Below, in pieces: positions 26,599 through 42,689 of a stretch of DNA of 64,000 nucleotides. Made by a program: the position numbers and the translations under genes. The DNA comes from Cyclobacteriaceae bacterium (GTDB taxonomy: Bacteria; Bacteroidota; Bacteroidia; Cytophagales; Cyclobacteriaceae). Under the pieces are notes generated by a model. The model ran no database searches. It was not told the DNA's origin and saw nothing but the letters and a program-made list of their open reading frames with translations. Positions within the stretch are counted from its first letter, which is position 1; every line of letters starts with the position of its first letter. The stretch lies in assembly GCA_965228415.1 (NCBI GenBank), contig OZ245814.1, positions 2,001,125 through 2,065,124 of the forward strand, given 5' to 3'.

Positions 26599-26603
26599 GT
26601 CAA

Positions 26604-27083
26604 TTATTGGTAGGTGGCATGTTGGGCTATAAATTTTTCCAGGTTATTCAATGCAGTCTTATGAACTTTGTTTTTTAAAACCGGTGACCACCCCAACGCC
26701 AGGCCCGGCAACCCGAGTGCCTGTCTTGACCATCGCCAAAAGTTAAATTCATCGTCATGTTGTATAATTTTGCCCGCTTCAAACCGGAATTTTGCCTTGA
26801 TGATATTATGCACCTTTTGCCCTGTAGCTGAAAAAGTGTATTTTGCTTCCCACCGGCAGGAACCTCGCCGCTCATCACTTTCCACCTCGCTAAACGTAAG
26901 CTCCAAATCCTTTCCTCGTTCACAAAGCATATGCCACATGGCAGCAGTCTGTTTGTAATTTAGTGTCAGAAATGCCGGGTCTCTGAAAGTCAGCTTCTCG
27001 TGGTAGCAGGCGGCCATGGATTGATAGTCTCTCCTTTGGAATGCCTCGTAAAATGATGCGATTAAATGATTATGATCTGGCAA
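26604..27083 (-). CDS. SnoaL/NTF2-like small protein
   Basis: The N-terminal IASFYEAFQRRDYQSMAACYHEKLTFRDPAF block is typical of SnoaL-like polyketide-cyclase/NTF2 domains. Lies 5 bp from the upstream lipoprotein gene. Confidence 0.5.
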   Translation of the reverse strand: MPDHNHLIASFYEAFQRRDYQSMAACYHEKLTFRDPAFLTLNYKQTAAMWHMLCERGKDLELTFSEVESDERRGSCRWEAKYTFSATGQKVHNIIKAKFRFEAGKIIQHDDEFNFWRWSRQALGLPGLALGWSPVLKNKVHKTALNNLEKFIAQHATYQ

Positions 27084-27106
27084 GGGTTAAGGGTTTAGGT
27101 AATTGT

Positions 27107-27814
27107 TTAGTATCTCATGTCAGGAAAACCAACCGGATCCGCCCACAATCTGTTAAACTCTTTCTGATAGCTTTTGACCACCGCCGCATCCTGCGTCACC
27201 ATTAAATTCTCATGGTTATTCTCGGCAGCGCTTCTCGTCCAGTTGTAACTCCCCGTAAGTACGGAAATACCATCAATAACTGCAAATTTATGGTGCATAT
27301 GATGGGAGGTGTCATCGGTTTTTATATGGATACCCGCTTTTAACATTGTTTCGATATCGGAACCCAGATCGTAAATTTTGTCGTTGTCGGTAATGATCCT
27401 AACGGCAATCCCTCTGCGGTGGCAATCAATAATGGCCCTGGTAATCCTGTCATCGCTAATCGTAAACACACATAGGTTGATCGTTTTTATGGCCTGGTTT
27501 AGCGCTGTTAATATAGCTTCCAAACAGGCACTTCCCGGAGAAAAGTAAACCTGGCTAACACCATGTACCGACTTTTTAGGTAATAGAATTTTATTGGCCG
27601 TCTCCAACCAATCGATGATTTTTAAAATTCCATGCTCATGGGCATGGTTCCGGGCCAGTTCAAAAATTTTATGCCTCAGCAGGTCGAGTGTGCGTTTATC
27701 CTGACGGTAGTCTTCTATTTTTTGTTTGAGCGCTCGCTTTTCCAGCCTCGAAAAATTGCCGTCCTCAATAGTATCGCGAAACGACTGAGTAATCTCTTCC
27801 ATTGGTTCAGACAT
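27107..27814 (-). CDS. PLD-family single-HKD (Nuc-like) nuclease/phosphodiesterase with ~100-aa N-terminal helical extension
   Basis: HxK(x)4D(x)6GSxN motif HHKFAVIDGISVLTGSYNWT, preceded by the Nuc-like core VYFSPGSA...ITDNDK. A single HKD copy implies a homodimeric active site. Confidence 0.75.
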   Translation of the reverse strand: MSEPMEEITQSFRDTIEDGNFSRLEKRALKQKIEDYRQDKRTLDLLRHKIFELARNHAHEHGILKIIDWLETANKILLPKKSVHGVSQVYFSPGSACLEAILTALNQAIKTINLCVFTISDDRITRAIIDCHRRGIAVRIITDNDKIYDLGSDIETMLKAGIHIKTDDTSHHMHHKFAVIDGISVLTGSYNWTRSAAENNHENLMVTQDAAVVKSYQKEFNRLWADPVGFPDMRY

Positions 27815-27838
27815 CTTTGAACTAATTTTTGAACATTT

Positions 27839-28618
27839 CTATTTTAATTTCTTTTTTATCTCTCTGATTTCATCCTCAATTTTCAGAACCCTTGCCTCCA
27901 CGGCGGAGGGTGGGTTTAGGTAGATACTATAAACCCCGTAAACCTGCCATAACTCCAGGATCTCATCAGTTTTCAGGTAAATGGTAGAATAGTTGGGATC
28001 ATCCGCAGAAAATTCGATCTGGTCGCCGATATCCGTTATTCTTCGCGTAGTAATATTGTCTTTGGTCACCACCACGAATACCTTACCCTTCCTGATATTC
28101 CTGGCTGTTAATGTTTCGATTTGATAACCCAGCAAAATGTCTCCATGATGCAGCCCATTGTGATTATATTCCATCTCACTGCCATTCAACTGAAAAGCCC
28201 TTGACTTTTCCTTGCGACTGATGGGCAGGTAAATTTTTTCCAGCCTGGAAATAAAATCCTTATTCTGATAATTTACAATGTACTCCAGGTATTTGTCTAC
28301 CAAAACCAGCGATATGCCACCTTCCGGCATGGCACTTGTCTTTTTTCCGGCATCAGGCAGGCCTACTCCATCCGCGTCACCGACAATAATATCGAATTTA
28401 TAAAGATCATTTACCGTCAATTCTTTATTTAATAGCAAATCAATGGAAAGTCCAAAATGATGAGCAATTTGAACAATTGTCTCGATCTTTGGTTCCGCTC
28501 TACCCTCCTCATATGCTCCAACACTAGGCCTGGCCAGGCTAAATAATTCAGCAAAACTAGCCTGACTAAGCTTTTTAACCGTTCTAATCTTTTTAATATT
28601 TTTTCCAATATATGACAT
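27839..28618 (-). CDS. XRE-family HTH + S24 peptidase (LexA/phage CI-like) repressor
   Basis: N-terminal HTH_XRE (IKKIRTVKKLSQASFAELFSLARPSVGAYEEG) and a C-terminal S24 LexA-like beta-domain. It is the first gene of the minus-strand operon. Confidence 0.8.
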   Translation of the reverse strand: MSYIGKNIKKIRTVKKLSQASFAELFSLARPSVGAYEEGRAEPKIETIVQIAHHFGLSIDLLLNKELTVNDLYKFDIIVGDADGVGLPDAGKKTSAMPEGGISLVLVDKYLEYIVNYQNKDFISRLEKIYLPISRKEKSRAFQLNGSEMEYNHNGLHHGDILLGYQIETLTARNIRKGKVFVVVTKDNITTRRITDIGDQIEFSADDPNYSTIYLKTDEILELWQVYGVYSIYLNPPSAVEARVLKIEDEIREIKKKLK

Positions 28619-28916
28619 AACAAAAATTATTTTATGCTAATTTTTTGAGCTTCTCTAAAACTTTTAGTATATTTATTCCGTAAACAATATTAAACGCCGT
28701 CTAATTTAACGAATAAATATCTAATATTATTATCATAGTAAATAAAAGTAGCATTTCCAATTTCAATTAACAAACCACTACCAACAAACATATTCATGAA
28801 AAAAAAATTAGATCGATACTAAATGCCTTCCTTTTAAATTAACCTGCTTCAAAATAAGCAGATATATCAAATCAAAACAATTTTACAATGGATAAGAACT
28901 TATAAAAACTCAAACA

Positions 28917-29312
28917 ATGGATAACGATTTTAATAAAGTAAAAAACTACATCCTTGAACTCAATTATCTAATTACCTACGAAAACGAAAGCGACGGACTG
29001 ATTGCCATCGAAAAAGAAACGGAAGGAATCAAAAACCTGGTACTGGGTATTGCCGAACCCTTATTAATTGTCGAACAATTTATTCTTGAAATTAATAAAG
29101 ACAACCAGGATGTATACAAAAGTCTTTTACAAAAAAACCGGGATATCATTCACGGTGCCTTTGTACTGGACGAAAGCGGCAAAAAACTCATCTTCAGAAA
29201 CACCCATGAATTAGAAAATCTCAATTTGAATGAAATCGAAGGGACTTTAAATTCTTTGGGACTATTGCTCAGTGAATACTCTGAAGAGTTAATAAAATTT
29301 TCCAAAAATTAA
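28917..29312 (+). CDS. Small hypothetical protein, possibly YbjN/T3SS-chaperone-like
   Basis: 131 aa, acidic, with two alpha/beta half-repeats; it is the first gene of the psp-like cluster. The fold assignment is tentative. Confidence 0.35.
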   Translation: MDNDFNKVKNYILELNYLITYENESDGLIAIEKETEGIKNLVLGIAEPLLIVEQFILEINKDNQDVYKSLLQKNRDIIHGAFVLDESGKKLIFRNTHELENLNLNEIEGTLNSLGLLLSEYSEELIKFSKN

Positions 29313-29326
29313 ACGCAAGTTGTATT

Positions 29327-30061
29327 ATGAACATTTTCAAGAGAATCTTTAAAATCGGACAGGCTGAGGCCCATTCCACGGTTGATAAACTGGAGGATCC
29401 CATTAAAATGACCGAGCAGGGAATCAGAGATATGAAGGCAGACCTGGAGAAAAGCCTGAAAGCTTTGGCGGAGGTAAAATCCCTCGCTATAAGAGCCCGG
29501 GATGATGCAGAAAGTAATAAAAACAAAGCAAAAGATTATGAAAACAAGGCCATGCTACTTTTAAAGAGAGCACAGTCTGGTGATATGGATATGTCGGAAG
29601 CCGACCGGTTAGCCACCGAAGCCCTGGTAAAAAAAGAGGAGTGTCTGCAGCAAACCAGCAGGGCCAATGCACAGCAACACAAATTTGAGGAAAATGTAGC
29701 CGCACTCAATGCCAATATCAAGACCATACGCGGAAATATCAGCAAGTGGGAAAATGAATTAAAAACCCTGAAAGCCAGGGTAAAAGTGAGCTCGGCCACC
29801 AAGACTTTAAATAAGCAATTAGCTCAAATTGATTCCTCCAGCACTGTATCAATGCTGGAAAAAATGAAGGATAAAGTGGCCAGGGAGGAAGCAATCGCGG
29901 AATCTTACGGTGAGATTGCTCAGGAAAGCAGATCTGTAGATGAGGAAATTGACAAGGCACTGGCCGGAGCCGGCCATGACCGTGCTGTGGAAGATCTAGG
30001 AGCACTCAAAAAGAAATTAGGAATTATCAAAAAAGACGATGAGGGAGCAGAAGGGGAATAA
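29327..30061 (+). CDS. PspA/IM30 (Vipp1/LiaH, ESCRT-III-like) family protein
   Basis: Canonical PspA N-terminus (MNIFKRIFKIGQAEAHSTVDKLEDPIKMTEQGIRDMKADL) and coiled-coil throughout, 244 aa. Confidence 0.85.
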   Translation: MNIFKRIFKIGQAEAHSTVDKLEDPIKMTEQGIRDMKADLEKSLKALAEVKSLAIRARDDAESNKNKAKDYENKAMLLLKRAQSGDMDMSEADRLATEALVKKEECLQQTSRANAQQHKFEENVAALNANIKTIRGNISKWENELKTLKARVKVSSATKTLNKQLAQIDSSSTVSMLEKMKDKVAREEAIAESYGEIAQESRSVDEEIDKALAGAGHDRAVEDLGALKKKLGIIKKDDEGAEGE

Positions 30062-30221
30062 TCCCGCTGCTTCCATCAACGACTTAACCAATCATACAAT
30101 TTATACCAAAGGTATTAAGGCATCGTCGTGGTTAACCAGGTTAATTTTAACCCATGCGCAAATGCGATGCCTGCCTAAAACTGAATTTTCAAATTTTTGA
30201 TCGTTAGAATTATTTACGTCC

Positions 30222-30875
30222 ATGACAGAACTTTTTGATGCAGCGATTTCATTGCCCAATATTATCCCAACAGCCTTGCTGGGCCTGGTATTGCTATACT
30301 GGATAACAGTTGTGTTGGGTGCATTGGATTTTGATTTTTTGGATTTTGACCTGGATACGGAAATCGAGGGTGAATTAGAGGTGAGTGCAGACGCAGGCGG
30401 TGAGGGTGATGTTTCCATATCCTGGCTCAATTCAATTCTCGTATTCTTTAATATTGGCAGAGTCCCCTTCATGCTGTTTTTAAGCACTTTAGCGTTGCCA
30501 TTGTGGGTACTCTCCGTAATGACCAACTATTACCTGGGCATCGAATCGTTCCTGGGCGGATTACTGGTTTTTGTTCCGGTATTTTTTGTAAGCCTGTTCA
30601 TTGCCAAATTTCTGACCTTTCCGTTTGTTAAGCTATTTCAACATATGGAAAAAGAAGACGGAGAATCGAATTCGGCTGTCGGCAAGATTTGCGTTGTCTC
30701 TACCCTGATCACAGATAAAAAAATCGGTCAGGCGCAAGTAGCAACCAGCGGATCACCGATTTTACTGAATGTGGTAACGGGATCGGGCCATCAACTTAAA
30801 AGTGGCGACACCGCACTGGTCATCGAATTTTTAAAAGAGAGAAACCTGTACCTGGTAGAACCCTATAGCGGCTGA
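30222..30875 (+). CDS. NfeD/YqiJ-like membrane protein with C-terminal OB-fold
   Basis: Acidic DFDFLDFDLD segment, 3–4 TM helices, and a C-terminal NfeD beta-barrel (GKICVVSTLITDKKIGQAQV...GDTALVIEF). Confidence 0.6.
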   Translation: MTELFDAAISLPNIIPTALLGLVLLYWITVVLGALDFDFLDFDLDTEIEGELEVSADAGGEGDVSISWLNSILVFFNIGRVPFMLFLSTLALPLWVLSVMTNYYLGIESFLGGLLVFVPVFFVSLFIAKFLTFPFVKLFQHMEKEDGESNSAVGKICVVSTLITDKKIGQAQVATSGSPILLNVVTGSGHQLKSGDTALVIEFLKERNLYLVEPYSG

Positions 30876-30928
30876 CAAATGTCAGTCATGAATTATCAAT
30901 TTTAATCAACAACTTATCATCAAATCAT

Positions 30929-33061
30929 ATGGAAACATCAATGCTTTGGACAATAGTCATATTAACAGCATTCTTTTTAATAGCAATTTTGATACTCATT
31001 GCCAGAATGTACCGCAAGGCGGTGCAGGGCGAAGCTCTGGTCAGAACAGGGGCCGGGGGCACTAAAATATCATTCAATGGTATACTATCTTTTCCGGTAA
31101 TTCACAAACTTGAAATTATGGATATCACCCTGAAAACCATGGTGGTCTCCAGAACGGGAAAAGACGGCTTAATTTGCAAAGACAACATGCGAGCCGATAT
31201 TCAAATCACCTTTTTTGTAAGGGTTAACAAAACCGAGGATGATGTAAAACACGTGGCACAATCAATAGGTTGTCATCGCGCTTCCGATACCCAACAATTG
31301 GAGTTACTCTTTGATGCCAAATTTTCAGAGGCATTGAAGACGGTGGGCAAGCAATTTGATTTTGTAGAACTTTATAACTCCAGGGCTGATTTCAGGGATA
31401 AAATCATTGAAGAAATAGGCACCAACCTTAACGGTTACATACTTGATGACTGTGCCATCGATTACCTGGAACAAACCCCGCTTGATTCCCTTAATGAAAG
31501 TAATATCCTGGATGCTGAGGGTATTAAAAAAATCATTGACATTACTTCAAGGGAGAAAATCAAAGCCAACTTAATTGAAAAAGAGAAAGAGAAAACGATT
31601 ACAAAACAAAATGTGGAAGCCCGTGAGACCATACTGGAACTGGAAAAACAGCTGGCGGAAACTGAGGAAAAACAACGCAAGGAAATTGCGATCACAAAAG
31701 CCCGCGAGGAAGCGGAGACGAAGACTATGCAGGAGCAGGAAAGGCTGAAGTCAGAAAAAGCCCGCATTGTTACGGATGAAGAGCTACAGGTAGCCGAGGA
31801 AAACAAAATGCGTGAAATCATTGTGGCATTGAAAAACAAGGAGAAAACAGAAGCCATAGAAAGTGAGCGAGTGGAGCAGGCGCGGTCTCTTGAAGCTACG
31901 GAAAGAGAAAGAATCGTGACCCTCGCACAAATAGAGAAGGAAAAGGCCGTGGAAGAGGAGCGCAAAAACATCCAGGATGTTATCCGTGAAAGGGTAGCCG
32001 TGGAAAAAGCTGTGGTGGAGGAAGAGGAGAAAATTAAAGACACAAAGGCATATGCCGAGGCTGACAGGTTGAAAAAAGTGGCCATTACCAACGCTGAAAA
32101 AGACGCTGAGGAAGCACTGGTGAAGGAAATCAAAAGTGCCGAAGCCAAGAAACACGCAGCTGAGCACCTCGCCAAGCAAAAACTGATTGATGCCGATGCC
32201 GAGCAGGCATCTGCTGGACAAAGGGCAGACGCCATTAAAACACTGGCGGAAGCCAAGGCCGCTGAAGCTGCTGCACTGGGCATGTCCGAAGCTCAGGTAA
32301 TGGAAGCCAAAGCCGATGCACGCATCAAACAGGGTGAGGCAGAAGCCAGCGTTATCGAGGACCAGGCCATAGCTGAAGCCAAAGGCATTCAGGCCAAATC
32401 GGAAGCTCAGGCGTTGGGGAATCAAAAAATAGGTTTGGCCGAGGCAACTGTCATTGAAGCCCGGGCCCAGGCCGAAGAAAAGAAAGGCCTTGCCGAAGCA
32501 ACGGTCATGTCTGAGAAGTTTTCAGTAGACGCCAAAGGCATTGAGCAAAAAGCCAATGCGATGAAGAAACTGGATGGTGTTGGCAAGGAGCATGAGGAAT
32601 TCAAGTTGAAGTTAGGAAAGGAAAAGGAAATAGAGCTGGCTTCTATCCATATCCAGAAAGACATCGCCGAAGCCCAGGCCAGGGTCATCGCGGAAGCCTT
32701 GAAGGCTGCCAACATAGATATTGTAGGCGGAGAAACCATGTTCTTTGATCAAATCATTAACGCAGTTACCAGGGGTAAGTCAATTGACAGAATGGTCGAC
32801 AACAGTCATGTGATCGGCAGTGTTAAAGATACTTTCTTTAATTCCGATACCGGTGGGAATTTCAAAACCAGGCTCTCACAATTTATAGATCAGTTTGGAA
32901 TTAACCCGGAAGATGTCAAAAACTTAAGCCTGTCGGCGCTGTTGCTGAAAATGATGCATAAAGCCAAGGACAAGGATACCAAAGGCATTATCAGTCAATT
33001 GACCAGCGTTTCCGAAGCGCTCGGAATCGCGGATAAATCTGCTGAAAGCATCGGCCTGTAG
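30929..33061 (+). CDS. Flotillin/SPFH (band-7, YqiK-like) protein with long Ala/Glu-rich coiled-coil
   Basis: N-terminal TM and an SPFH core (ALVRTGAGGTKISFNGILSFPVIHKLEIMDITL), then ~350 aa of EA-rich heptad repeats and a C-terminal flotillin tail. Confidence 0.8.
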   Translation: METSMLWTIVILTAFFLIAILILIARMYRKAVQGEALVRTGAGGTKISFNGILSFPVIHKLEIMDITLKTMVVSRTGKDGLICKDNMRADIQITFFVRVNKTEDDVKHVAQSIGCHRASDTQQLELLFDAKFSEALKTVGKQFDFVELYNSRADFRDKIIEEIGTNLNGYILDDCAIDYLEQTPLDSLNESNILDAEGIKKIIDITSREKIKANLIEKEKEKTITKQNVEARETILELEKQLAETEEKQRKEIAITKAREEAETKTMQEQERLKSEKARIVTDEELQVAEENKMREIIVALKNKEKTEAIESERVEQARSLEATERERIVTLAQIEKEKAVEEERKNIQDVIRERVAVEKAVVEEEEKIKDTKAYAEADRLKKVAITNAEKDAEEALVKEIKSAEAKKHAAEHLAKQKLIDADAEQASAGQRADAIKTLAEAKAAEAAALGMSEAQVMEAKADARIKQGEAEASVIEDQAIAEAKGIQAKSEAQALGNQKIGLAEATVIEARAQAEEKKGLAEATVMSEKFSVDAKGIEQKANAMKKLDGVGKEHEEFKLKLGKEKEIELASIHIQKDIAEAQARVIAEALKAANIDIVGGETMFFDQIINAVTRGKSIDRMVDNSHVIGSVKDTFFNSDTGGNFKTRLSQFIDQFGINPEDVKNLSLSALLLKMMHKAKDKDTKGIISQLTSVSEALGIADKSAESIGL

Positions 33062-33197
33062 CAAGCCGCTTAATTGGACAATGCCGGGGTTTAGTCAAAT
33101 CCCGGCAATCCCAAAAATCTAATAGTATAAATAGAAAGACAATCTTGCTGGATCTGTAAGAGGGAGGTAGCTACTATCATACTTAAACCTCTGTAAA

Positions 33198-33422
33198 ATG
33201 AATAGTTCAAACGAAAAACTTGCTTGTAAAATCAGTGGTATGATCATCAGCTTTTTCATTGCTGGTATGATGATCATTCTGCTAACCAATGCAGATCACC
33301 ATAGAATATCTACCTGGATCGCTTTTTTCATAGCCATGCTGGGTTTGGTGGCACTCAATATCATTTACCTGAATTTGATAGAAAATGTATTTAGAAAGCT
33401 TAACCATAAAAATAAATTATAA
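33198..33422 (+). CDS. Small 2-TM membrane protein (74 aa)
   Basis: Two clear hydrophobic helices; sits in the gap between flotillin and the permease on the same strand. No homology is recognised. Confidence 0.35.
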   Translation: MNSSNEKLACKISGMIISFFIAGMMIILLTNADHHRISTWIAFFIAMLGLVALNIIYLNLIENVFRKLNHKNKL

Positions 33423-33426
33423 ACAG

Positions 33427-33699
33427 ATGAAATACTGGCCAAGAGAGCCGATAAAGGATAGTCTGAAAACACGAAAACAATCAACTGACAAGTCTGAAAA
33501 GAATTTTGAAGATGAATTACACAGATTCGAGATTACAGGGCTGAAAAAGAAAATCAAAAAGCTAAAACAACGCAATCTCGAAAAATTTAAAGAAAGAGCC
33601 GCTTATAAGAAACAGGTTGTACAAAAACAAATTACGCTGGTATTGCTGATTTTTACATTGATCTGGTTCTTTTTGTTGATGATGATTTGGCTTAATTAG
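33427..33699 (+). CDS. Small tail-anchored coiled-coil protein (~90 aa)
   Basis: ATG at 33427 lies 5 bp after the preceding stop. Lys/Glu-rich helix followed by a C-terminal TM (ITLVLLIFTLIWFFLLMMIWL). Confidence 0.35.
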   Translation: MKYWPREPIKDSLKTRKQSTDKSEKNFEDELHRFEITGLKKKIKKLKQRNLEKFKERAAYKKQVVQKQITLVLLIFTLIWFFLLMMIWLN

Positions 33700-33756
33700 G
33701 CTCACTCAAACAAGTAGACTTTAACAATACAATAACATAAAAAGATACTAAACACT

Positions 33757-35235
33757 ATGATAAAACATTTAATAAGTCATCAGTGGAAGCAATCTTCCAG
33801 ATCTAAAAAATTTGCCGAAAGCACCGGGATTAAAATTGTATATTGGTTTTTTGTAGGCCTTATGCTTTTATATGTCCTGGCGGCTGGATTTTTTATCGAT
33901 AAAATTCTGGAGGCATCATTCCCTAATCAGGACCTTATAACCGTTTTTAATAGTTTCATTTTATATTATTTCACAGCGGATGTATTTATGCGGTTTTATC
34001 TTCAGGATGTGCCTATTTTATCGATCAGCCCCTATCTGCATTTACCCATAAAAAAGCGTAAAATGATTCATTTTATGCTCTCAAAGTCGCTGCTAAGCCT
34101 TTTTAATTACCTGCCACTCTTTGTATTTATCCCATTTGGGCTGAAGGTAATTCTTCCAGCATTGGGGGCGGGTTATGCAATTATCTGGCTGTTGGGGATG
34201 TATGGCTTAATTTTGACCAATAACTTCCTGGCAATTTATTTAAAGAGACAATTGGTAGGAAACTTTAAGGTGGTCATCAGCTTTATCGCCCTTATTATTA
34301 CCTCGGCCATTGTCGATTTAATGGGCTGGGTAGATTTTTCTGAACTATCATCCCTGCTTTTCACCGGCCTGGGATACAGTTCCGGATATCTGCTGGTTGT
34401 CGGGGGCCTATTACTAACTGCCTATTTGTCAAATTATCTTTTACTAAAGAAAAATAGTTACCTGGACGAAATTGACTACGGAAAAAAGAAAGACGGCTTC
34501 AAGGCCATCAACACCTCTTTTTTACAGCGTTATGGCAACATAGGATCCCTGATCGCCATGGAGTTAAAGCTGATCTTCAGGAATAAAAGGCCTAAATCGA
34601 TATTTTTCATGAGCATTGTGCTCTTGTTGTATGGTTTTTTATTTTATCCCAACGACTTCTATATGGAGGGATTTGGTATGCTCACGTTTGTAGGAGTCTT
34701 TATGACCGGCATATTCCTGAGCAATTACGGCCAGTTATTGTTAAGCTGGAATAGCAATTTCTTTGATAAGATCATCACCAGCCGCGTCAATATGCACGAG
34801 TATTTTGAGTCGAAATTCTGGCTGTTTTTTGTTACTTCCACCGCTGCCTTTATCCTTACTGTTCCATATTTATATTTTGGCTGGAAGGTATTGGCTATCA
34901 ATGCAGCCTGTTATTTATTTAATATTGGCGTCAATGCCTTTGTGATATTTTACTTCAGCATGCGAAACCCCAAGCGAATAGATCTGTCCAAAAGTGCTTC
35001 TTTCAACTACGAAGGTGTCACGGCTACACAGTTCATCTTAATCTTGCCTATTCTGCTATTCCCGGTTTTACTGGTATTGCCCTTCCAATATGTGGAAGTG
35101 CCATACCTGGGAATTTCCCTGCTGGCGGTTATGGGCATAGTGGGGCTGTTTTTGAAAAATACCTGGTTTAAACTGATTGAAAAAAGATACAGGACCAAAA
35201 AGCACGAACTTGCTACTGGTTTCAGACAAGTGTAA
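33757..35235 (+). CDS. Polytopic membrane protein (~12 TM), putative ABC-2-type permease partner
   Basis: Two 6-TM halves and no conserved catalytic motif; immediately followed by the ABC ATPase. Confidence 0.55.
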   Translation: MIKHLISHQWKQSSRSKKFAESTGIKIVYWFFVGLMLLYVLAAGFFIDKILEASFPNQDLITVFNSFILYYFTADVFMRFYLQDVPILSISPYLHLPIKKRKMIHFMLSKSLLSLFNYLPLFVFIPFGLKVILPALGAGYAIIWLLGMYGLILTNNFLAIYLKRQLVGNFKVVISFIALIITSAIVDLMGWVDFSELSSLLFTGLGYSSGYLLVVGGLLLTAYLSNYLLLKKNSYLDEIDYGKKKDGFKAINTSFLQRYGNIGSLIAMELKLIFRNKRPKSIFFMSIVLLLYGFLFYPNDFYMEGFGMLTFVGVFMTGIFLSNYGQLLLSWNSNFFDKIITSRVNMHEYFESKFWLFFVTSTAAFILTVPYLYFGWKVLAINAACYLFNIGVNAFVIFYFSMRNPKRIDLSKSASFNYEGVTATQFILILPILLFPVLLVLPFQYVEVPYLGISLLAVMGIVGLFLKNTWFKLIEKRYRTKKHELATGFRQV

Positions 35236-35272
35236 GTGTAAATTCTTCATCAACCTATTAATATTAAATACT

Positions 35273-35974
35273 ATGAATTTTATAGAAATCAATAACCTCA
35301 AAAAAGCATATAAACTAACAGAAGTTGTCAATATTCCCCATCTGGCTATTCCGGTGGGTGAGAGTTTTGGACTCGTGGGTAACAATGGGGCCGGCAAAAC
35401 CACACTGTTTAGAATGATCCTTGACCTCACCAGACCCAATTACGGAGAGGTCGCCAGCAAAGGCATCAATGTCAGGCAAAGTGAGGAATGGAAAGGCTAT
35501 ACGGGCTCTTACCTGGACGAAGGCTTTGTCATTGATTTTTTGACACCCGATGAATACTTTCATTTCATCGGCGATATTAATCAACTCTCCAAAGGCGATA
35601 TCAATGAGTTTCTGGATGCTTTTGCCGAAGTTTTTAATGACGAAATCATTGGAAAAAAGAAATATATCCGCGATTTATCCAAGGGCAACCAGAAAAAAGT
35701 GGGTATTGCGGCAGCACTGATGATCAACCCGGAAATAATCCTGCTGGACGAACCCTTCGCCAACCTGGATCCAAGTACACAGATACGGCTCAAAAAATAC
35801 CTGATAGAGATCAAACGACAAAAACAAGTTACCTTACTCATTTCCAGTCACGATCTCAATCATGTGACCGAAGTTTGTGAGAGAATTGTAGTATTGGAAA
35901 AAGGAGAAATTATTCATGACATAAGAACCAGCCAAAACACCTTAAAAGCATTGGAAGAACATTTCGCCGTGTAG
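35273..35974 (+). CDS. ABC transporter ATP-binding protein
   Basis: Walker A GNNGAGKTT, ABC signature LSKGNQKKV and Walker B ILLDEP. The start is placed at MNFIEINNL because the longer ORF starting at 35177 would overlap the permease. Confidence 0.85.
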   Translation: MNFIEINNLKKAYKLTEVVNIPHLAIPVGESFGLVGNNGAGKTTLFRMILDLTRPNYGEVASKGINVRQSEEWKGYTGSYLDEGFVIDFLTPDEYFHFIGDINQLSKGDINEFLDAFAEVFNDEIIGKKKYIRDLSKGNQKKVGIAAALMINPEIILLDEPFANLDPSTQIRLKKYLIEIKRQKQVTLLISSHDLNHVTEVCERIVVLEKGEIIHDIRTSQNTLKALEEHFAV

Positions 35975-36033
35975 CGACAAAGTTCCCGGATCATTTTATA
36001 AAAACACTTTAATATCAATCAGAATAACCATTA

Positions 36034-39000
36034 ATGACAGAAAAAAAAACAAATAACAAAAAGAAAAATCAAAATCCGGCTGCCGAATTGGAGGCGGGAA
36101 CTTATGAAATTTTAAGCAAAAGGCTGCAAAATAATGGCCTTCAGCTCAGGGAAAAGCTACACAGGCTCAACGAATCCAGAAAGGAAGTATTTGGATCAAT
36201 TGATACTGCGCTGATCACAACCGAAAGAATAAATACGGAGCACAACTGTATTCCCTGGGACATGGAACCGATCGGTAATCACTTTATCTTTGGCTACAAT
36301 GTCCATATCGGGCTGAAAGTGGAAATGCAACTCGCCGATGTGTTCAGTATTTATACTTTCAAAGATCACGGCTTTCACGCCGAAGGACTCGAATTGATCA
36401 CCGACAACGCCTTCATTGAAGATTTCAGAAAGTTATATAAGTATTATAAAAACACCCGGTTTGTAAAATTTGCACGGATTGAAAATCATTTGTTCATGAT
36501 TTTCCGGGTAGGAAAAGGCAGGGATGATATCAAGACATTTAAATGGTTAATAAACGGTTTGGAATTGGTCTATGTAGACAACAGGAGTGATCATGAATAT
36601 GTTTTTCCCAGCCAACACGAATTTAACTGGAAAAAAACCAACAGAGACTTCCACCGGGAAGGTGAATTTCCTCATATCTCTATTGAGGACAAGGTTTTTG
36701 TAGAAACGATTGGTGGTGACCTTACCATTAAAATAGAGGACAACACCGATGAGGGAAAAGGAATATATGCGGAAAAGGTGGAAAATATAGATCAAAGACT
36801 GGAAGACGCTGAGATTTATTATACCATTTTAGGAAATATTATTATTCTTAAAATCAGACCTTATCAGGAAAAAAACTTTCGCTATATCGTTTACAACGCA
36901 AAATTAAAGGAAGCCAGGAGAATCGACGCTTTAAAAGATGCCTGTGTATTGTTGCCGGATGATTATGGGATCATTTTTTCCAACGGCTATTACCTAAAGA
37001 CGGGAGAGTTTAAGCAATTCGACAACCAGTTGGATAACATGCATTTTGAAAGAAGAATTGCCTCGCCTAATGGCGAAGATTTTCTTTATGTCTTTTACAA
37101 TAAAGACTCCGGGGTTTATCTTTTATTTCCTTATAATATCATCGAGCAAAAAGTCAATACGCCGCTAACCTGTCACGGTTATTCGATCTTTGAAAACGGG
37201 GAGCTTATTATTTTGAATGCGGACAATGCAGCCAAAAAGCATCACGCTATACAAATATGGCAGACCCCTTATACCGGACCAAATTACCAGGTACAGGGCT
37301 CCAACAACTCCTATTTATATAAAATCGGCAACAAAGAAATCGTTAAGGCCATGGCTGAATGCCATGAAGTAATCAGCCTCATTGAAAAGGGAGACGACTA
37401 CGAAAACCTATATGCAGATTTAATAGGGATTACCGGCGATTTAAAAGACAGCTATCATTGGGTCGCCAGAGAAGAGGCGCATGATCTGGCTTCATCGTTG
37501 ACAGCCATACACGAGACCGCATCATCTGCTATCTCCGAATTTGAAAAAGTAAACGCGCTTAGAAAAAACACCAGAGAACAGGTGGCCTTGATATCAAAGG
37601 AAACCAAGGGCCTGATCAGCAAAATAAAACGTCAAAAAACGGACACGGTCAATGCCTACGTGTTGAACCTGCAAGACCTGCGAAATATCCGGGGTAAATT
37701 GATTTCTTTGAAAGAACTGCGGTACGTGGATCTTGAAGCCGTTGAAGGGTTTGAAAAAGAGGTGGAAATGGCTACTGCGAATACCTCCGGGGAATGTATT
37801 AAATTCTTGCTAAAAAAAGATGCACTGGCACCCTACGCGCAAAACGTGACCAGGATTGAGCGCGCAGTGCAACAGTTGGAAAAAATAGTGGAAGCCAACC
37901 AATTGGCAGAGGAGATTGCCAAAGTATCAGGGGAGTTGGAATTACTGATAGAAATTGTCACCAACCTGAAAATTGAAGATGCTACCGAAACTACCAGAAT
38001 TGTGGATAACATTTCGACCATCTATTCAGGTTTTAATAAAATAAAGGCAGATCTCAAAAATAAGAGAATATTGCTGTTGGGTGTCGAGGGTAAGGCGGAG
38101 TTCAATGCACAAATGAAGTTGGTAGACCAGGGGCTGATCAACTACCTGGACATCTGTGACACACCCGAAAAATGTGATGAATACCTTACCAGGTTAATGG
38201 TTCAGCTGGAGGAGCTGGAAGGTAAATTTTCCGAATTCGATGAATTTATAGATAAAATAAGCCTCAAAAGGGAAGAAATCTATAACGGGTTTGAAACCCG
38301 CAAAATTGCCCTGATCGAAGCGCAAACCAAACGGGCCAATACGTTGATGCAGGCCGCCGACAGAATTTTGGGTGCGGTCAAAAGCCGTGTGTCCAGGTTT
38401 GAATCAATTGATGAGATCAATGGCTATTACGCCGGGGATCTGATGGTAGAAAAAGCACGTGACATAATTACCTCACTGGTAGATTTGGGTGATACCGTGA
38501 AATCCGATGAGATCCAAAGCCGGCTGAAAGCAGTGCGCGAAGAAGCTATGAGGCAACTCAAAGACAAAAAAGAGCTGTTCCTTTCCGGAGAAAATATCAT
38601 TCAATTTGGTAATCATAAGTTTTCGGTCAATACGCAACCCCTTAGTCTTACCATTGTACCAAAAGGGGATGACATGTATTTTCACCTGACAGGCACAAAC
38701 TTTTTCGAAAAAATCAACGATGCCGGCTTTAATGATTGCAAAGCTGTCTGGGATCAGGCCCATGTATCTGAAAATCCACAGGTTTACAAAGGCGAATACC
38801 TGGCTTACAAAATCATAAAATCAAAGCCTTCGGGTTCAGGTGCAGCGCAAAATATAGCCGTTCTTACGCCCGAGCAGTTAATAAAGCTGGATCAAAAAAA
38901 ATTGAAGAATTACGTGCAGCAATTCATGGCCACAAGATATCATGAAGCCTATATAAAAGGGGTTCATGACCACGATGCCATCATGATATTAAATGTTTTA

Positions 39001-40965
39001 CTCAGGTTCTTAAAGTCGGGAGATTTACTGAGATATTCGTCAGAAGCCAGAGCCTGTGCTACCCTATACTGGAAAGTTTTCATTTCGGCAGAAAACAAAA
39101 ACCATCTTAACCATCAGTTAAAGGGTGTCGGCACCATCCTGAAAGTATTCCCTGAAACCAGAGAATTTGATGATATCAAACTGGTATTACAAAGAAAAAT
39201 TGAAGCCTTTGTAGGTGACACTGGTCTGTTTGACAGCACCGTTTGCCATCAGGCAGCTGAATATTTATTCCATGAGGTAAACCGGGGCGACAGGTTTATT
39301 ATCGATGTGGAATCGGCCAGACTCTATGAGGGGTTTTTTCAATACCTCGGCAAAAAAAAGGCAAAAAAAGAGTTCGACCGATCTATTGCACAAATTGCTG
39401 CCGACTCTTTGGCAAAATACAGATTAATTCAGCACTGGCTGCGGGCCTTTGTCCGGTCCGGCGATAAAATCACCGGTGATGAATACATCAACGAAACCGC
39501 TGCCATCATTTTAACGGACTCCTTTAAACCCAACCACGTAATTCATGTCGCCTTAAAAGAGACGCTGCAAGGTTTATTGGGTACACATAGCATGATTAAA
39601 GACAAGAAGTATGAGCTGGACTATAATGCCTTTACTCTGAAACTGGATAATTTTGAAAAGCAGGTAGTTCCTAAATACCACAAATTTCTGCAATTAAAGA
39701 AAGAGATTTCCACCACTTATAGCGAAGCGCTGAGGCTGGAGGAATTCAGACCAAGAATTTTATCATCATTCGTAAGAAATCAATTAATAGATAGCGTATA
39801 CCTTCCACTGATAGGTGCCAATCTGGCAAAACAGATTGGAACCGTCGGAGAAAACAAGAGAACCGACCTGATGGGCATGTTATTGCTAATTTCCCCACCT
39901 GGCTACGGCAAAACCACCCTCATGGAATATATTGCTAATCGCCTGGGGCTCATATTTATGAAAATAAACGGCCCCGCTATCGGCCATCAGGTTACCGCTG
40001 TTGATCCGGCGGAAGCTACAAATGCCGGTGCCAGAGAGGAGTTGGAAAAATTAAACCTTGCATTCGAGATGGGTGACAACGTGATGATTTACCTAGATGA
40101 CATTCAACATTGTAATCCGGAGTTTCTGCAAAAATTCATCTCACTCTGCGATGGTCAAAGAAAAATTGAGGGAATATATAAAGGCAAGAGTAAAACCTAC
40201 GATTTCAAGGGGAAAAAGGTTTGTGTGGTGATGGCCGGCAATCCCTATACCGAAAGTGGGGAGAAGTTTAGCATTCCCGATATGCTGGCTAACCGGGCAG
40301 ATATTTATAATCTGGGAGATATCATAGGTGATAACGCCAATGTATTTAAGTTGAGCTACCTGGAAAACAGCCTGACCTCTAATCCGGTCATGAATAAACT
40401 GGCGGGAAAAAGTCAGAAGGACCTGTATACCATGATCAAAATTGCTGAAACTGACAACAAGGAAGGGCTTGATTTTGACTACGCTTATGCCACTACTGAA
40501 ATAGATGAATATGTCAACGTTCTGAAAAAACTGCTGAAAGTACGCGATATCATATTAAAGGTCAACATGGCCTATATATACTCCGCTGCGCAAGCCGATG
40601 AATATCGAACTGAGCCACCTTTTAAACTACAGGGGTCTTACAGGGATATGAACAAAATTGCCGAAAAGGTAGTACCTGTGATGAATGAAAAAGAACTGGC
40701 AACCCTGATTGATACTCATTATGAAAATGAGGCACAAACACTGACGACCGGTGCGGAGGCAAATTTATTGAAGTACAAAGAGCTTCAAAAAGCCCTGAAC
40801 GGCCAGGATCAACAAAGGTGGGATGAGATCAAAAAGACCTTTGTCCGCAAACAGCAGCTAAGTGCACTTGGAGGGCAAAATCAGGTAGGACAGGTATTGT
40901 TGCAGATGGAGCATATTAACGACGGATTGAAAGGCATCATCAGTGCCTTGATACAAGATAAATAA
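36034..40965 (+). CDS. Giant (1643 aa) protein with single C-terminal MoxR/AAA_5-like AAA+ module and ~1280-aa coiled-coil-rich N-terminal extension
   Basis: Walker A variant LLLISPPGYGKTTL and Walker B VMIYLDDIQH. MoxR-type sensor/arginine block VVMAGNPYTESGEKFSIPDMLANRAD. The first ~430 aa are beta-rich; residues ~430–1280 are largely helical/coiled-coil. Confidence 0.7.
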   Translation: MTEKKTNNKKKNQNPAAELEAGTYEILSKRLQNNGLQLREKLHRLNESRKEVFGSIDTALITTERINTEHNCIPWDMEPIGNHFIFGYNVHIGLKVEMQLADVFSIYTFKDHGFHAEGLELITDNAFIEDFRKLYKYYKNTRFVKFARIENHLFMIFRVGKGRDDIKTFKWLINGLELVYVDNRSDHEYVFPSQHEFNWKKTNRDFHREGEFPHISIEDKVFVETIGGDLTIKIEDNTDEGKGIYAEKVENIDQRLEDAEIYYTILGNIIILKIRPYQEKNFRYIVYNAKLKEARRIDALKDACVLLPDDYGIIFSNGYYLKTGEFKQFDNQLDNMHFERRIASPNGEDFLYVFYNKDSGVYLLFPYNIIEQKVNTPLTCHGYSIFENGELIILNADNAAKKHHAIQIWQTPYTGPNYQVQGSNNSYLYKIGNKEIVKAMAECHEVISLIEKGDDYENLYADLIGITGDLKDSYHWVAREEAHDLASSLTAIHETASSAISEFEKVNALRKNTREQVALISKETKGLISKIKRQKTDTVNAYVLNLQDLRNIRGKLISLKELRYVDLEAVEGFEKEVEMATANTSGECIKFLLKKDALAPYAQNVTRIERAVQQLEKIVEANQLAEEIAKVSGELELLIEIVTNLKIEDATETTRIVDNISTIYSGFNKIKADLKNKRILLLGVEGKAEFNAQMKLVDQGLINYLDICDTPEKCDEYLTRLMVQLEELEGKFSEFDEFIDKISLKREEIYNGFETRKIALIEAQTKRANTLMQAADRILGAVKSRVSRFESIDEINGYYAGDLMVEKARDIITSLVDLGDTVKSDEIQSRLKAVREEAMRQLKDKKELFLSGENIIQFGNHKFSVNTQPLSLTIVPKGDDMYFHLTGTNFFEKINDAGFNDCKAVWDQAHVSENPQVYKGEYLAYKIIKSKPSGSGAAQNIAVLTPEQLIKLDQKKLKNYVQQFMATRYHEAYIKGVHDHDAIMILNVLLRFLKSGDLLRYSSEARACATLYWKVFISAENKNHLNHQLKGVGTILKVFPETREFDDIKLVLQRKIEAFVGDTGLFDSTVCHQAAEYLFHEVNRGDRFIIDVESARLYEGFFQYLGKKKAKKEFDRSIAQIAADSLAKYRLIQHWLRAFVRSGDKITGDEYINETAAIILTDSFKPNHVIHVALKETLQGLLGTHSMIKDKKYELDYNAFTLKLDNFEKQVVPKYHKFLQLKKEISTTYSEALRLEEFRPRILSSFVRNQLIDSVYLPLIGANLAKQIGTVGENKRTDLMGMLLLISPPGYGKTTLMEYIANRLGLIFMKINGPAIGHQVTAVDPAEATNAGAREELEKLNLAFEMGDNVMIYLDDIQHCNPEFLQKFISLCDGQRKIEGIYKGKSKTYDFKGKKVCVVMAGNPYTESGEKFSIPDMLANRADIYNLGDIIGDNANVFKLSYLENSLTSNPVMNKLAGKSQKDLYTMIKIAETDNKEGLDFDYAYATTEIDEYVNVLKKLLKVRDIILKVNMAYIYSAAQADEYRTEPPFKLQGSYRDMNKIAEKVVPVMNEKELATLIDTHYENEAQTLTTGAEANLLKYKELQKALNGQDQQRWDEIKKTFVRKQQLSALGGQNQVGQVLLQMEHINDGLKGIISALIQDK

Positions 40966-41056
40966 ATAGTTTTTCCTTTTGCTAGCTTTTATATAAAGGA
41001 AATTTAGCTATGGCCATAGCTCTGTATCATTTTATTCACTTTAAACCAATAAAATT

Positions 41057-41314
41057 ATGGGATACCTGGGCTTTGGAATGCGCAAGGAAGTTTATGCACG
41101 AAAACCTAAATCCGCATTCAAAAAAATAAAAAAAATCTATGGCAAGCACCTGGATTTGCCAAAATCGCCTTTGAAATTAACACCTGACCAAACGAGTCCA
41201 TACCGGCAAAAAAAATCAATCCATCTGTTAGATACCGCCGCTTTTAAGGTATTTATCTTTCTGATTTTAGTTGGAAGTGTGTTACTTATCATGCACTTGT
41301 TAGGATCAATATAA
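41057..41314 (+). CDS. Small hypothetical protein with C-terminal TM (85 aa)
   Basis: Basic N-terminus and a C-terminal hydrophobic helix; lies just downstream of the giant gene. This is a weak call. Confidence 0.25.
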   Translation: MGYLGFGMRKEVYARKPKSAFKKIKKIYGKHLDLPKSPLKLTPDQTSPYRQKKSIHLLDTAAFKVFIFLILVGSVLLIMHLLGSI

Positions 41315-41362
41315 TTCCGGGTAAATCAACTTAATATCGGACAGGTAATTTGTTCTTATCCT

Positions 41363-41399
41363 AAAAATCACGGCTATCTTACTGTTTGAGATAGCCGTG
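41363..41399 (-). terminator. Putative terminator downstream of aminotransferase gene (minus strand)
   Basis: 11-bp perfect inverted repeat CACGGCTATCT/AGATAGCCGTG with a 9-nt loop. An A-tract on the plus side gives a U-tract on the minus strand. Confidence 0.5.
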
Positions 41400-41573
41400 A
41401 GCTATGCTTAATAGATAATGATTTTATGTCTTGTTATTTGCTGATTTTGCTCAATATTGAGAATATAGATACCATTGCGTAATTCGGCATTTGGCTTAAT
41501 ACTGACGTTTGTCCCCATATTCTGAGGATCTATTAAGTCATAGTAGTAACGTTTTCCTGAAATATCCGGACCA

Positions 41574-42689
41574 TTAACCCATAATTGTCTTTAAAGCTGC
41601 CAGTAACATATTTACATGATTTTTTGAGGAACTTTCGCCCATCAAACCGATACGCCAGATTTTACCGGCCAGATCGCCGAGTCCTCCTCCTATTTCGATA
41701 TCATATTCTTCCAGGAGTCTTTTCCGGACGTCAGCATCATCCAGTCCCTGAGGAAGTACCACAGCATTCAGCATAGGCAGCCGGAATTCGGGTTCCACAA
41801 GAAACTCAAAACCCAGCTCTTTTAATCCTTCCCGTAACAATTCATGATTTTGCTGGTGGCGGATAAATCGGTTTTGCAACCCTTCCTCCATCACAAGTTG
41901 TAACGCCTCCCGCAAGGCAAACATAGCCGATACAGGGGCAGTATGGTGGTATGCCCTTTTGGCGCCTTGCCAATAGTTTTTCACCATAGTCAGGTCTAAA
42001 AACCAACTTTGTACTTTGGTTTTCCTTTCATCCAACACTTTTATTGCCCGGTCGCTAAACGATACAGGCGATAAACCGGGAGGGGCGCTCAGGCACTTTT
42101 GAGTCCCGGAATAAAGCGCATCAATCTGCCATTCATCCATTTTAATCTCTGCACCACAAAAAGAGGTGACTGCATCGACGACAAATAAGGCTCCAGCATC
42201 ATGGGCAAGTTCACTTAAGGTTTCCAAAGGTTGCAAAACGCCGGTAGAAGTTTCAGCATGCACGACTGCAACCAGCTTTGGTGAACAGCTTTGCAGTGCC
42301 TGCTCTACCTGGGCAGGATCGATTGGCGCTCCCCAGGGTGCATCTACCCGAATTAATTTGGCACCGCAGCGTTCTACAATATCACTCATTCTATTACCAA
42401 ACACCCCATTAACACAGATCAACGCCTCGTCTCCCGGCTCCAACAGATTTACCAGGCAAGTTTCCATTCCAGCGCTACCCGGAGCTGAAACGGCAAAGGT
42501 AAGGTGATTTTTCGTTTGAAGGGCTTGTTGCAACATTAGCTTAATATCATCCATCACCTCAAGAAACTGCGGATCAAGATGGCCCACAAGCGGTGTAGCC
42601 ATCGCTTTTAATACACGAGGATGAACATTGCTGGGTCCGGGACCCATTAAGACTCTGGCACTGGTGTTTAAGGCTTCCTGATACGACAT
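41574..42689 (-). CDS. Class-V aminotransferase (alanine-glyoxylate / serine-pyruvate aminotransferase-like)
   Basis: AGXT-family N-terminus ([17 protein letters not shown]...[10 protein letters not shown]) and a PLP-Lys region; 371 aa. Confidence 0.85.

Follow-up and report, generated by a model that had tools for sequence, protein, structure and literature searches.

In the 64,000-nucleotide (nt) stretch of contig OZ245814.1 analysed here (hereafter the window), the plus strand carries between positions 28917 and 40965 a compact cluster of genes, which we read, with a probability of roughly 0.6, as a membrane-stress or membrane-organisation operon of a Fulvivirgaceae (Cytophagales) bacterium, in which a giant ATPase would remodel assemblies of flotillin and PspA. 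The identities of the parts, their topologies, their conserved order and their conserved catalytic motifs are assigned by homology and synteny, and they carry this reading. An envelope-stress or membrane role had been put forward in a preliminary description of this DNA, and both the co-orientation of the genes and the linkage of the giant ATPase to flotillin and YqiJ, conserved across phyla, agree with it. The same description held the arrangement to be undescribed; in fact, the core operon (CesT/Tir-PspA, band-7/flotillin, YqiJ and a β-propeller/coiled-coil AAA+ protein) was published by Ravi et al. (mSystems 2024, PMC11237479) from comparative genomics, with no experimental data. To this, the window adds a variant with an ABC module, a regulator of the operon's own with its candidate operator, and numbers for the synteny. 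The ABC transporter alone is particular to the lineage of the window, and the locus is a variant of a published, experimentally uncharacterised operon class. These observations bear on the function of bacterial flotillins and on an acknowledged gap, namely how PspA polymers come apart without Vps4.

Gene content of the cluster

The cluster holds the following genes, given with strand, size in amino acids (aa) and the evidence for each assignment; ORF stands for open reading frame.

28917-29312, plus strand: CesT/Tir-like chaperone, 131 aa; Pfam CesT_Tir_1 (PF22550), 2e-53, full length
29327-30061, plus strand: PspA/IM30 protein (ESCRT-III superfamily), 244 aa; Pfam PspA_IM30 (PF04012), 1.9e-41
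30222-30875, plus strand: YqiJ-family membrane protein, 217 aa, with three transmembrane segments, an acidic loop and a C-terminal NfeD-like soluble domain; ortholog profile against YqiJ
30929-33061, plus strand: YqiK-type flotillin (SPFH/band-7), 710 aa, with an N-terminal transmembrane anchor, a long coiled coil and a conserved C-terminal module; ortholog profile against YqiK
33198-33422, plus strand: small protein with two transmembrane segments (two hydropathy peaks), 74 aa, clade-specific; present in L001, L081 and L082
33427-33699 (mechanical ORF start 33385), plus strand: small basic protein of ~90 aa (ORF of 104 or 90 aa) with a single, C-terminal transmembrane anchor
33757-35235, plus strand: DUF5687 polytopic membrane protein, putative ABC permease, 492 aa; Pfam DUF5687, 1.4e-152; ~11 hydropathy peaks
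35273-35974, plus strand: ABC ATPase partner, 233 aa from the ATG at 35273 (mechanical ORF start 35177); Pfam ABC_tran, 4.5e-22
36034-40965, plus strand: giant ATPase, 1643 aa, with a helix (residues 21-53), a β-propeller (~59-410, DUF3686), long helices (427-848, including DUF7902), a helical domain (~900-1240), a single AAA+ module (~1270-1500) and a C-terminal helical region

Although a single plus-strand cluster is indeed present, nine convincing ORFs were called and not the ten first counted; ten are reached only with the small gene at 41057-41314, downstream of the giant gene. Nine genes were likewise called in the 94%-identical relative L081. From 28917 to 41314, the intergenic gaps are in order 14, 160, 53, 136, 4, 57, 37, 59 and 91 nt, computed with the start codons preferred by gene calls in close relatives, and they match the 5-160 bp estimated at first sight.

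The family calls made from the letters alone for PspA/IM30, NfeD/YqiJ, flotillin, the tiny transmembrane proteins and the ABC ATPase are borne out by Pfam, hhalign and hydropathy, while the first protein, which had been called YbjN-like, is better described as CesT/Tir-like, its YbjN match being weak (9e-5 against 2e-53 for CesT_Tir_1). The chaperone gene lies directly 5′ of PspA in 19 loci, with a gap of 14 nt in the window, and a CesT/Tir-like chaperone directly 5′ of a yjfJ-type PspA is the arrangement by which Ravi et al. define their class. The PspA_IM30 match scores 142.6 bits against a curated cut-off of 33.9, and the protein stays under the NCBIfam equivalog cut-offs for both E. coli PspA and LiaH; by these scores, it is assigned to the PspA/IM30 family and would be an ortholog of neither.

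Taken alone, the flotillin-like and YqiJ-like proteins of the window gave no Pfam, NCBIfam or PDB sequence match beyond marginal ones, and profiles were therefore built from their orthologs in related loci. The YqiJ-like profile aligns over its full length with E. coli YqiJ (hhalign 96.8%, E-value 2e-10, 183 columns), and its C-terminal OB domain is seen weakly at the expected place (YuaF C-terminal domain 2k14, E-value 0.23). Note that its loop between the first and second transmembrane segments (residues ~33-64) carries an alternating Asp/Glu run, DFDFLDFDLDTEIEGELE..., which the ortholog alignment shows to be kept as DxDxxDxDxD across phyla and which might bind cations or polyamines. The flotillin profile matches E. 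coli YqiK through the SPFH domain and the coiled coil (hhalign 100%, E-value 7.7e-42, 394 columns), and Pfam Band_7 is matched by 6 of 35 flotillin orthologs (best 3.3e-13). The C-terminal 190 aa showed no similarity to the YqiK C-terminus in BLASTP; this conserved module is a candidate docking site, a lead only.

Regarding the two mini-proteins, the 74-aa protein is 66% identical to a 71-aa gene product of L083, and the counterparts of the small basic protein in relatives measure 90, 71, 103 and 91 aa, with the transmembrane end alone conserved in the comparison with L083. Hydropathy analysis gave one N-terminal transmembrane segment in the flotillin (residues 6-24), three in YqiJ, two and one in the mini-proteins and ~11 in DUF5687, and none in CesT, PspA, the ABC ATPase and the giant protein. 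All partners thus face the cytoplasm or the membrane.

Conservation of the flotillin-ATPase unit

Synteny was analysed in 80 loci, the best-scoring of more than 565 matches with one genome per species, in which simple ORF calls were searched with the window proteins by phmmer and then jackhmmer and all neighbours were clustered. These loci cover Bacteroidota, Planctomycetota, Verrucomicrobiota, Desulfobacterota, Clostridia, Kiritimatiellota and Omnitrophota. For flotillin adjacency, 61 loci were informative, having 3.5 kb or more of DNA in front of the giant gene. In 58 of them, the gene immediately 5′ of the giant gene, and co-oriented with it, encodes flotillin, a linkage far beyond chance, and in 56 YqiJ and flotillin both precede it. 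The spacer between the flotillin and giant genes has a median of 160 nt and becomes an 11-nt overlap in some Clostridia, and the core order is kept across at least six phyla with 46-94% identity. As judged from this synteny, YqiJ, flotillin and the giant ATPase form an ancient three-gene unit.

Our counts agree with the description of Ravi et al. (PMC11237479) and quantify it; the same authors found that abbreviated flotillin-YqiJ(-AAA+) operons are more widespread. The CesT-PspA pair precedes YqiJ in 19-21 loci, all from Cytophagales, Flavobacteriales or relatives, and PspA linkage is restricted to Bacteroidota (21 of the 80 loci) plus one Planctomycetota locus. PspA lies directly 3′ of the giant gene in L075 (Phycisphaerae), and in L011 PspA and a PLD gene are found downstream of it. 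PspA was thus apparently joined to the core on separate occasions, and the additions that appear proper to Cytophagales and Flavobacteriales are the CesT/Tir-like chaperone, PspA and a divergent XRE regulator with a predicted inactive S24-like domain. No further conserved neighbour family was found among the 80 loci. Hence, of the co-conservation with the giant protein that the preliminary description had proposed to look for, the part concerning flotillin holds, whereas PspA follows mainly in Bacteroidota and the ABC genes are restricted to one clade.

The giant ATPase

Pfam places DUF3686 at residues 38-475 of the giant protein, DUF7902 at 596-678 and one AAA module at ~1283-1409. AlphaFold2 monomer models of residues 1-900 and 861-1643, each built on an alignment of 40 sequences that share at least 55% identity with the query, reached mean confidences (pLDDT) of 82.0 and 78.7, respectively. 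They show an N-terminal helix, a β-rich domain, very long helices, an all-helical domain, and a C-terminal αβα ATPase core with a helical lid. In Foldseek searches, the N-terminal part matches WD40/Kelch-type β-propellers, and the models thus support DUF3686 as a β-propeller, in agreement with Ravi et al. (PMC11237479). The combination by which these authors define the AAA+ member of their class, that is, an N-terminal coiled coil and β-propeller repeats, is found here with the AAA domain in C-terminal position.

The catalytic part is strongly conserved. Indeed, the Walker A motif PPGYGKTT is present in 79/79 orthologs, and DDIQH, AGNP and PDML[AS]NR[AS]D are each present in 77/79, across phyla; since the motifs for Walker A, Walker B, sensor-1 and Arg are near-invariant, the giant protein is clearly maintained as an ATPase. 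Its clade is less clear-cut. A phmmer search against PDB matched p97/Cdc48 around Walker A, and the ATPase core matched RuvB (top, E-value 3.6e-4), p97 and NorQ in Foldseek, all at ~1e-3 to 1e-4. In the model, two strands at residues ~1377-1390, between Walker B and sensor 1, may form a hairpin, while the β2-α2 segment is a conserved loop without a clear hairpin. By the established AAA+ classification, a hairpin at this place speaks against the classical AAA/Vps4 clade and is compatible with MoxR-like or Clp/Lon/RuvB-like proteins. Neither an MIT domain nor a classical core lacking this hairpin was found in the giant protein. The comparison with MoxR gave a narrow margin over other clades, at 17% identity. 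Thus, of the 'MoxR-like giant AAA+ protein' first described, the AAA+ module and the length of 1643 aa stand, and 'MoxR-like' is defensible as structural resemblance and not as family membership.

The family is large, with more than 4800 clusters at 90% identity among the scored candidates (E-value up to 1e-5). The β-propeller region alone gave 726 representatives at 50% identity, of which the full-length ones nearly all measure 1600-1950 aa, and DUF3686 is nearly confined to proteins of this size. A counterpart from Agaribacillus aureus (Fulvivirgaceae BMA12, L081) is 94% identical to the window protein. Longer forms also occur: in Planctomycetota and Opitutales, the protein reaches 1830-1980 aa with C-terminal extensions that have no Pfam match, and in L024 (9953-15673, Desulfobacterales) it ends in ankyrin repeats (residues ~1792-1887). 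These repeats, in one protein, were the only extra domain that Pfam found in the long Planctomycetota and Desulfobacterota forms.

Proposed mechanism and known systems

Altogether, the invariant catalytic motifs, the linkage to flotillin and YqiJ in at least six phyla and the repeated joining of PspA make the giant ATPase an obvious candidate for the energy-consuming partner of these scaffolds. In the mechanism that we propose, the flotillin, anchored by its N-terminal transmembrane segment, would form an SPFH cage or microdomain with YqiJ on the cytoplasmic face of the inner membrane, while the CesT-like chaperone would hold PspA until needed; under membrane stress, PspA would then join the flotillin platform where the membrane is damaged or curved. 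The giant ATPase, probably acting as an oligomeric ring, would use its propeller and helical arm for docking and spend ATP on the assembly, remodelling or recycling of flotillin and PspA polymers. A lineage-specific export or sensing function would come from the ABC module, and the XRE regulator would control expression by way of a conserved operator in the divergent promoter region. Since it is flotillin and not PspA that the ATPase follows, its primary client is more probably flotillin/YqiJ. A bolder and rather doubtful extension is that the giant ATPase is the missing ATP-driven remodeller of bacterial scaffolds (flotillin cages and, in Bacteroidota, PspA polymers), a non-homologous functional counterpart of Vps4 and FtsH/HflKC, with the ABC module coupling remodelling to the export or sensing of a membrane-active compound.

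Known systems resemble parts of this locus. All five defining components of the class of Ravi et al. (PMC11237479), for which these authors proposed the same membrane-dynamics reading, lie here in a single cluster of one orientation, and the optional PLD (HKD) gene, which they report in some of these operons, is nearby; the window differs by the DUF5687 protein, the ABC ATPase and two or three tiny transmembrane proteins between the flotillin and ATPase genes. Neither the XRE/S24-like regulator nor the DUF5687-ABC insertion is mentioned in the text of that paper. The E. coli yqiJK and B. subtilis yuaFG (floT) loci encode the same NfeD-like/flotillin pair in the same order, but the E. coli locus has neither a giant ATPase nor PspA, and the window flotillin has 710 aa against 553 aa for YqiK. 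In B. subtilis pspA-ydjGHI, PspA is encoded with the SPFH protein YdjI, as PspA is with flotillin here, and a B. subtilis SPFH protein is reported to be necessary for linking PspA to the membrane; this operon differs in its partners YdjG and YdjH, the latter with a TPM domain, and has no CesT-like chaperone, YqiJ or AAA+ ATPase.

As in archaea and eukaryotes, where ESCRT-III goes with Vps4, an ESCRT-III-superfamily protein is encoded in the window with an AAA+ ATPase, and a 2025 review states that a Vps4-like ATPase appears to be absent in bacteria. In addition, HflK/C-FtsH and prohibitin-m-AAA, known complexes of an SPFH cage with an AAA+ enzyme, recall the genetic coupling of an SPFH-family scaffold to an AAA+ enzyme observed here. 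The window ATPase differs from the enzymes of these complexes in being soluble (no transmembrane segment), in lacking a protease domain and in its β-propeller and long helical arm. The P. aeruginosa bac operon (PA3732-PA3729) was considered as a homologous characterised system and rejected, as it has a DUF2170/YjfI-type chaperone and a different PspA context.

Several points weigh against a membrane-remodelling operon. Distant relatives are under-sampled among the 80 loci, and in three loci (L023, L035 and L039) the giant gene has no adjacent flotillin gene. The ATPase goes with flotillin/YqiJ and not with PspA, and a PspA-directed (Vps4-like) role would be at best secondary. Its AAA+ core is not placeable in a clade of known mechanism, and its Walker B motif, where DE is usual, reads hhhhDD (YLDDIQH, residues 1355-1356), as it does in 77 of 79 orthologs. 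Moreover, in the literature searched, no paper mentions DUF3686 (PF12458), DUF7902 or DUF5687, nor were experiments on any member found. Nevertheless, the two outcomes that the preliminary description had named as fatal to its envelope reading, that is, genes unlinked in relatives or a giant protein belonging to a characterised family with a non-envelope function, were not encountered, and the reading of the cluster as a membrane-organisation operon survives them.

The DUF5687-ABC module

The DUF5687-ABC pair had been described as a 12-transmembrane permease with its ATPase and counted as part of the system, the BceAB-type transporters beside PspA/LiaH systems in Firmicutes being named as known examples. 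The pair does not belong to the conserved system, and its permease is a DUF5687 protein with ~11 hydropathy peaks. We rejected a BceAB-type sensing ABC transporter: Pfam gave no FtsX match in the permease, and no histidine kinase or response regulator is encoded in the cluster. The counterparts of the ABC ATPase in relatives measure 231-233 aa, and its best NCBIfam matches (LptB, DrrA and GldA-type) are all far under the cut-offs and indicate a generic resemblance.

The pair was found inside the operon in none of the 80 sampled loci. It occupies exactly this position in six genomes, namely that of the window and five others, BMA12 (L081), a TARA scaffold (L082), L088, Fulvivirgaceae bacterium BMA10 (L083) and L087, the giant proteins of these five being 94%, 80%, 71%, 66% and 63% identical to that of the window, in this order; the DUF5687 identity falls in step (100/75/67/58/53%). 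In L001, whose giant protein is 75% identical, the module is gone, and a 61-aa ORF at 9789-9974 in its place keeps the DUF5687 N-terminus MIKYLIHHHW, which marks it as a deletion scar. Outside such operons, the DUF5687-ATPase pair stands free beside Peptidase_M28 genes in Pontibacter and Roseivirga; the pair adjoins Peptidase_M28 in two unrelated genomes (L084, 8001-11181; L085, 7091-10186), and this neighbour hints at the native role of the module. The spacer between the flotillin and giant genes holds lineage-specific small transmembrane or lipoprotein genes in some loci, and DUF559-like endonuclease, GIY-YIG and IS200-like transposase genes, judged by eye from ORF sequences, in L008, L009, L028, L043, L046, L049 and others. 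The spacer thus appears as an insertion hot spot within an otherwise rigid operon, and the module as one old insertion into it, handed down vertically within a Fulvivirgaceae-type clade, of which at least one lineage can do without it.

These observations leave room for the pair being a passenger exporter inserted in a variable spacer with no functional tie to the flotillin/PspA machinery, a possibility that we rate somewhat below even odds. Its absence from the sampled loci, its free-standing occurrence beside Peptidase_M28, the reception of unrelated insertions, including selfish elements, by the same spacer, and the loss in L001 that left a scar all speak for a passenger. Against it, the pair has been kept at the exact position in six genomes with giant proteins 63-94% identical and DUF5687 identities of 53-100% that track them, and its gaps to the neighbours are short and it has no terminator of its own, hence it is predicted to be co-transcribed. 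In addition, other PspA/Snf7-AAA+ operons carry ABC transporter genes (PMC11237479).

Note that in BMA10 (L083, 4307-21479) the operon is longer, with a GPP34-family gene before DUF5687 and, after the giant ATPase, DUF4178, a 251-aa lipoprotein-like gene, DUF350 and a spermine-synthase-like gene; it thus unites two PspA operon classes of Ravi et al. in one string. GPP34, DUF4178, DUF350 and spermine synthase genes were searched for in the window, and none was found.

Alternative functions and the divergent regulator

Rather than a disassembly motor, the giant protein could also be a maturation chaperone of the MoxR-like kind, or else a static scaffold resembling a coat (propeller plus helical arm), by which a client would be loaded or regulated within the flotillin cage, with PspA acting independently. 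We consider this unlikely. Compared with the known MoxR proteins (NorQ, CbbQ and RavA), the giant protein has five times the size, and a gene for a VWA-domain partner, the usual companion of MoxR, was found neither in the annotated neighbourhoods of L081, L082, L083 and L088 nor among the conserved neighbour families of the 80 loci. For a coat-like scaffold, the Foldseek propeller-plus-helix matches (clathrin heavy chain and IFT-A) have very low TM-scores (0.08-0.17).

A different function, anti-phage defence or abortive infection, had been suggested by the phage-type repressor and nuclease that adjoin the cluster. Both genes lie on the minus strand, next to a candidate control region.

27107-27814, minus strand: single-HKD PLD-superfamily protein, 235 aa, no transmembrane segment; Pfam PLDc_2, 3.5e-32; motif HHKFAVID...GSYNWT
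27839-28618, minus strand: XRE-type helix-turn-helix (HTH) protein with a degenerate S24-like domain and a C-terminal coiled-coil helix; Pfam HTH_3, 1e-9, and Peptidase_S24, 9.6e-8
28668-28696, plus strand: promoter/operator-like motif TAtaTTTAc-N2-3-TAACAATATTAGC, in the divergent intergenic region 28619-28916

The ~260-aa regulator family is transcribed divergently from CesT in 19 Bacteroidota loci. In an hhalign comparison with E. coli LexA, Ser119 is replaced by Glu and Lys156 by Arg, and the alignment of the regulator family shows no conserved Ser or Lys in these columns. From this, we take the protein not for a prophage repressor but for the cognate XRE-type regulator of the operon, with a conserved C-terminal helix and an S24-like domain that is presumably non-catalytic and would serve in sensing or dimerisation. 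The motif TAtaTTTAc-N2-3-TAACAATATTAGC occurs at the same relative place in L044, L052, L057, L065, L004 and L081, which include distant Flavobacteriales and Cytophagales, and it can be read as a -7 box of the Bacteroidota type with an operator-like palindrome behind it, with the TAACAATATTAG motif as candidate operator for the XRE regulator. The divergent region also holds an inverted repeat (28669-28684 / 28705-28720) and a small hairpin (28844-28861). The motif adjoins the start codon of the regulator, and ~220 nt separate it from the CesT ATG downstream, so that a long 5′ leader is implied; an Rfam scan of 26500-42000 found no match to a riboswitch or leader in this ~220-nt region.

The minus-strand gene behind the regulator encodes a PLD-superfamily protein by its HxKxxxxD and GSxN motifs (HHKFAVID...GSYNWT). 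Homologues lie nearby in L004, L011, L015, L071, L080, L081, L083 and L088, often at the same position behind the regulator, and the gene is absent from the 80%-identical relative L082. It thus appears to be a recurrent accessory gene transcribed behind the regulator, for which a lipid or a nucleic-acid substrate are both conceivable.

In the defence scenario, the repressor-like gene and the PLD 'nuclease' would sense phage or act as effector, and the membrane proteins would execute cell suicide. The HTH+S24 protein and the HKD-family protein do adjoin the cluster, and the ABC ATPase gives generic matches to PADLOC ATPase models. Large ATPases and PLD nucleases also occur in defence systems. 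Yet no PADLOC-DB 2.0 model matched beyond P-loop/coiled-coil noise (best 1e-4 for the giant protein, confined to the Walker A region), the regulator has no Ser-Lys dyad and accompanies the operon as a fixed partner in 19 loci, and the PLD gene is dispensable, as its absence in L082 shows. The flanks of the cluster are housekeeping genes whose order is kept in relatives, its GC content (0.38-0.42, against 0.37-0.46 over the window) does not set it apart, and no integrase or other island sign was found at the cluster. Moreover, the core order is stable across at least six phyla, unlike patchy defence islands with fast turnover. A defence role is thus very improbable.

The least credible proposal, that the giant protein is a 'DNA repair ATPase' whose adjacency to membrane genes is incidental, can draw on the Pfam description of DUF3686, on the NCBI product name derived from it, on weak RuvB_N matches in Pfam and on RuvB being the top Foldseek match, but no DNA-binding or nuclease domain was found in the protein, its neighbours are flotillin/YqiJ in 58/61 loci and never repair genes, and no paper found supports the label, a misleading name that the operon context corrects in favour of a membrane-organisation role.

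Transcript ends and other observations

Three further features concern the ends and the internal structure of the predicted transcript.

33084-33105, plus strand: strong GC-rich hairpin just 3′ of the flotillin stop codon; RNA fold of 33070-33120, -20.4 kcal/mol
41057-41314, plus strand: small protein of 85 aa with one transmembrane segment (hydropathy), clade-specific; present in L001, L081, L082 and L088
41369-41399, no strand assigned: perfect hairpin with a 13-bp stem between convergent genes; RNA fold of 41355-41415, -23.5 kcal/mol

The 85-aa gene is probably the last gene of the operon transcript, and the hairpin at 41369-41399 likely marks the operon end; a terminator scan found no canonical terminator there. 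A scan for sigma-70 promoters was uninformative, with 43 sites against 36 expected. The hairpin behind the flotillin gene has no T-run and may act as a partial terminator or attenuator, or as a stabiliser of the upstream mRNA, and it could lower the output of the catalytic genes behind it in comparison with that of the structural genes. Further upstream, on the minus strand, lies a 1475-aa ORF (20334-24761) with no Pfam match at E-values up to 0.001, and genes of 1476-1477 aa are found as its counterparts at the same upstream position in L082 and L083.

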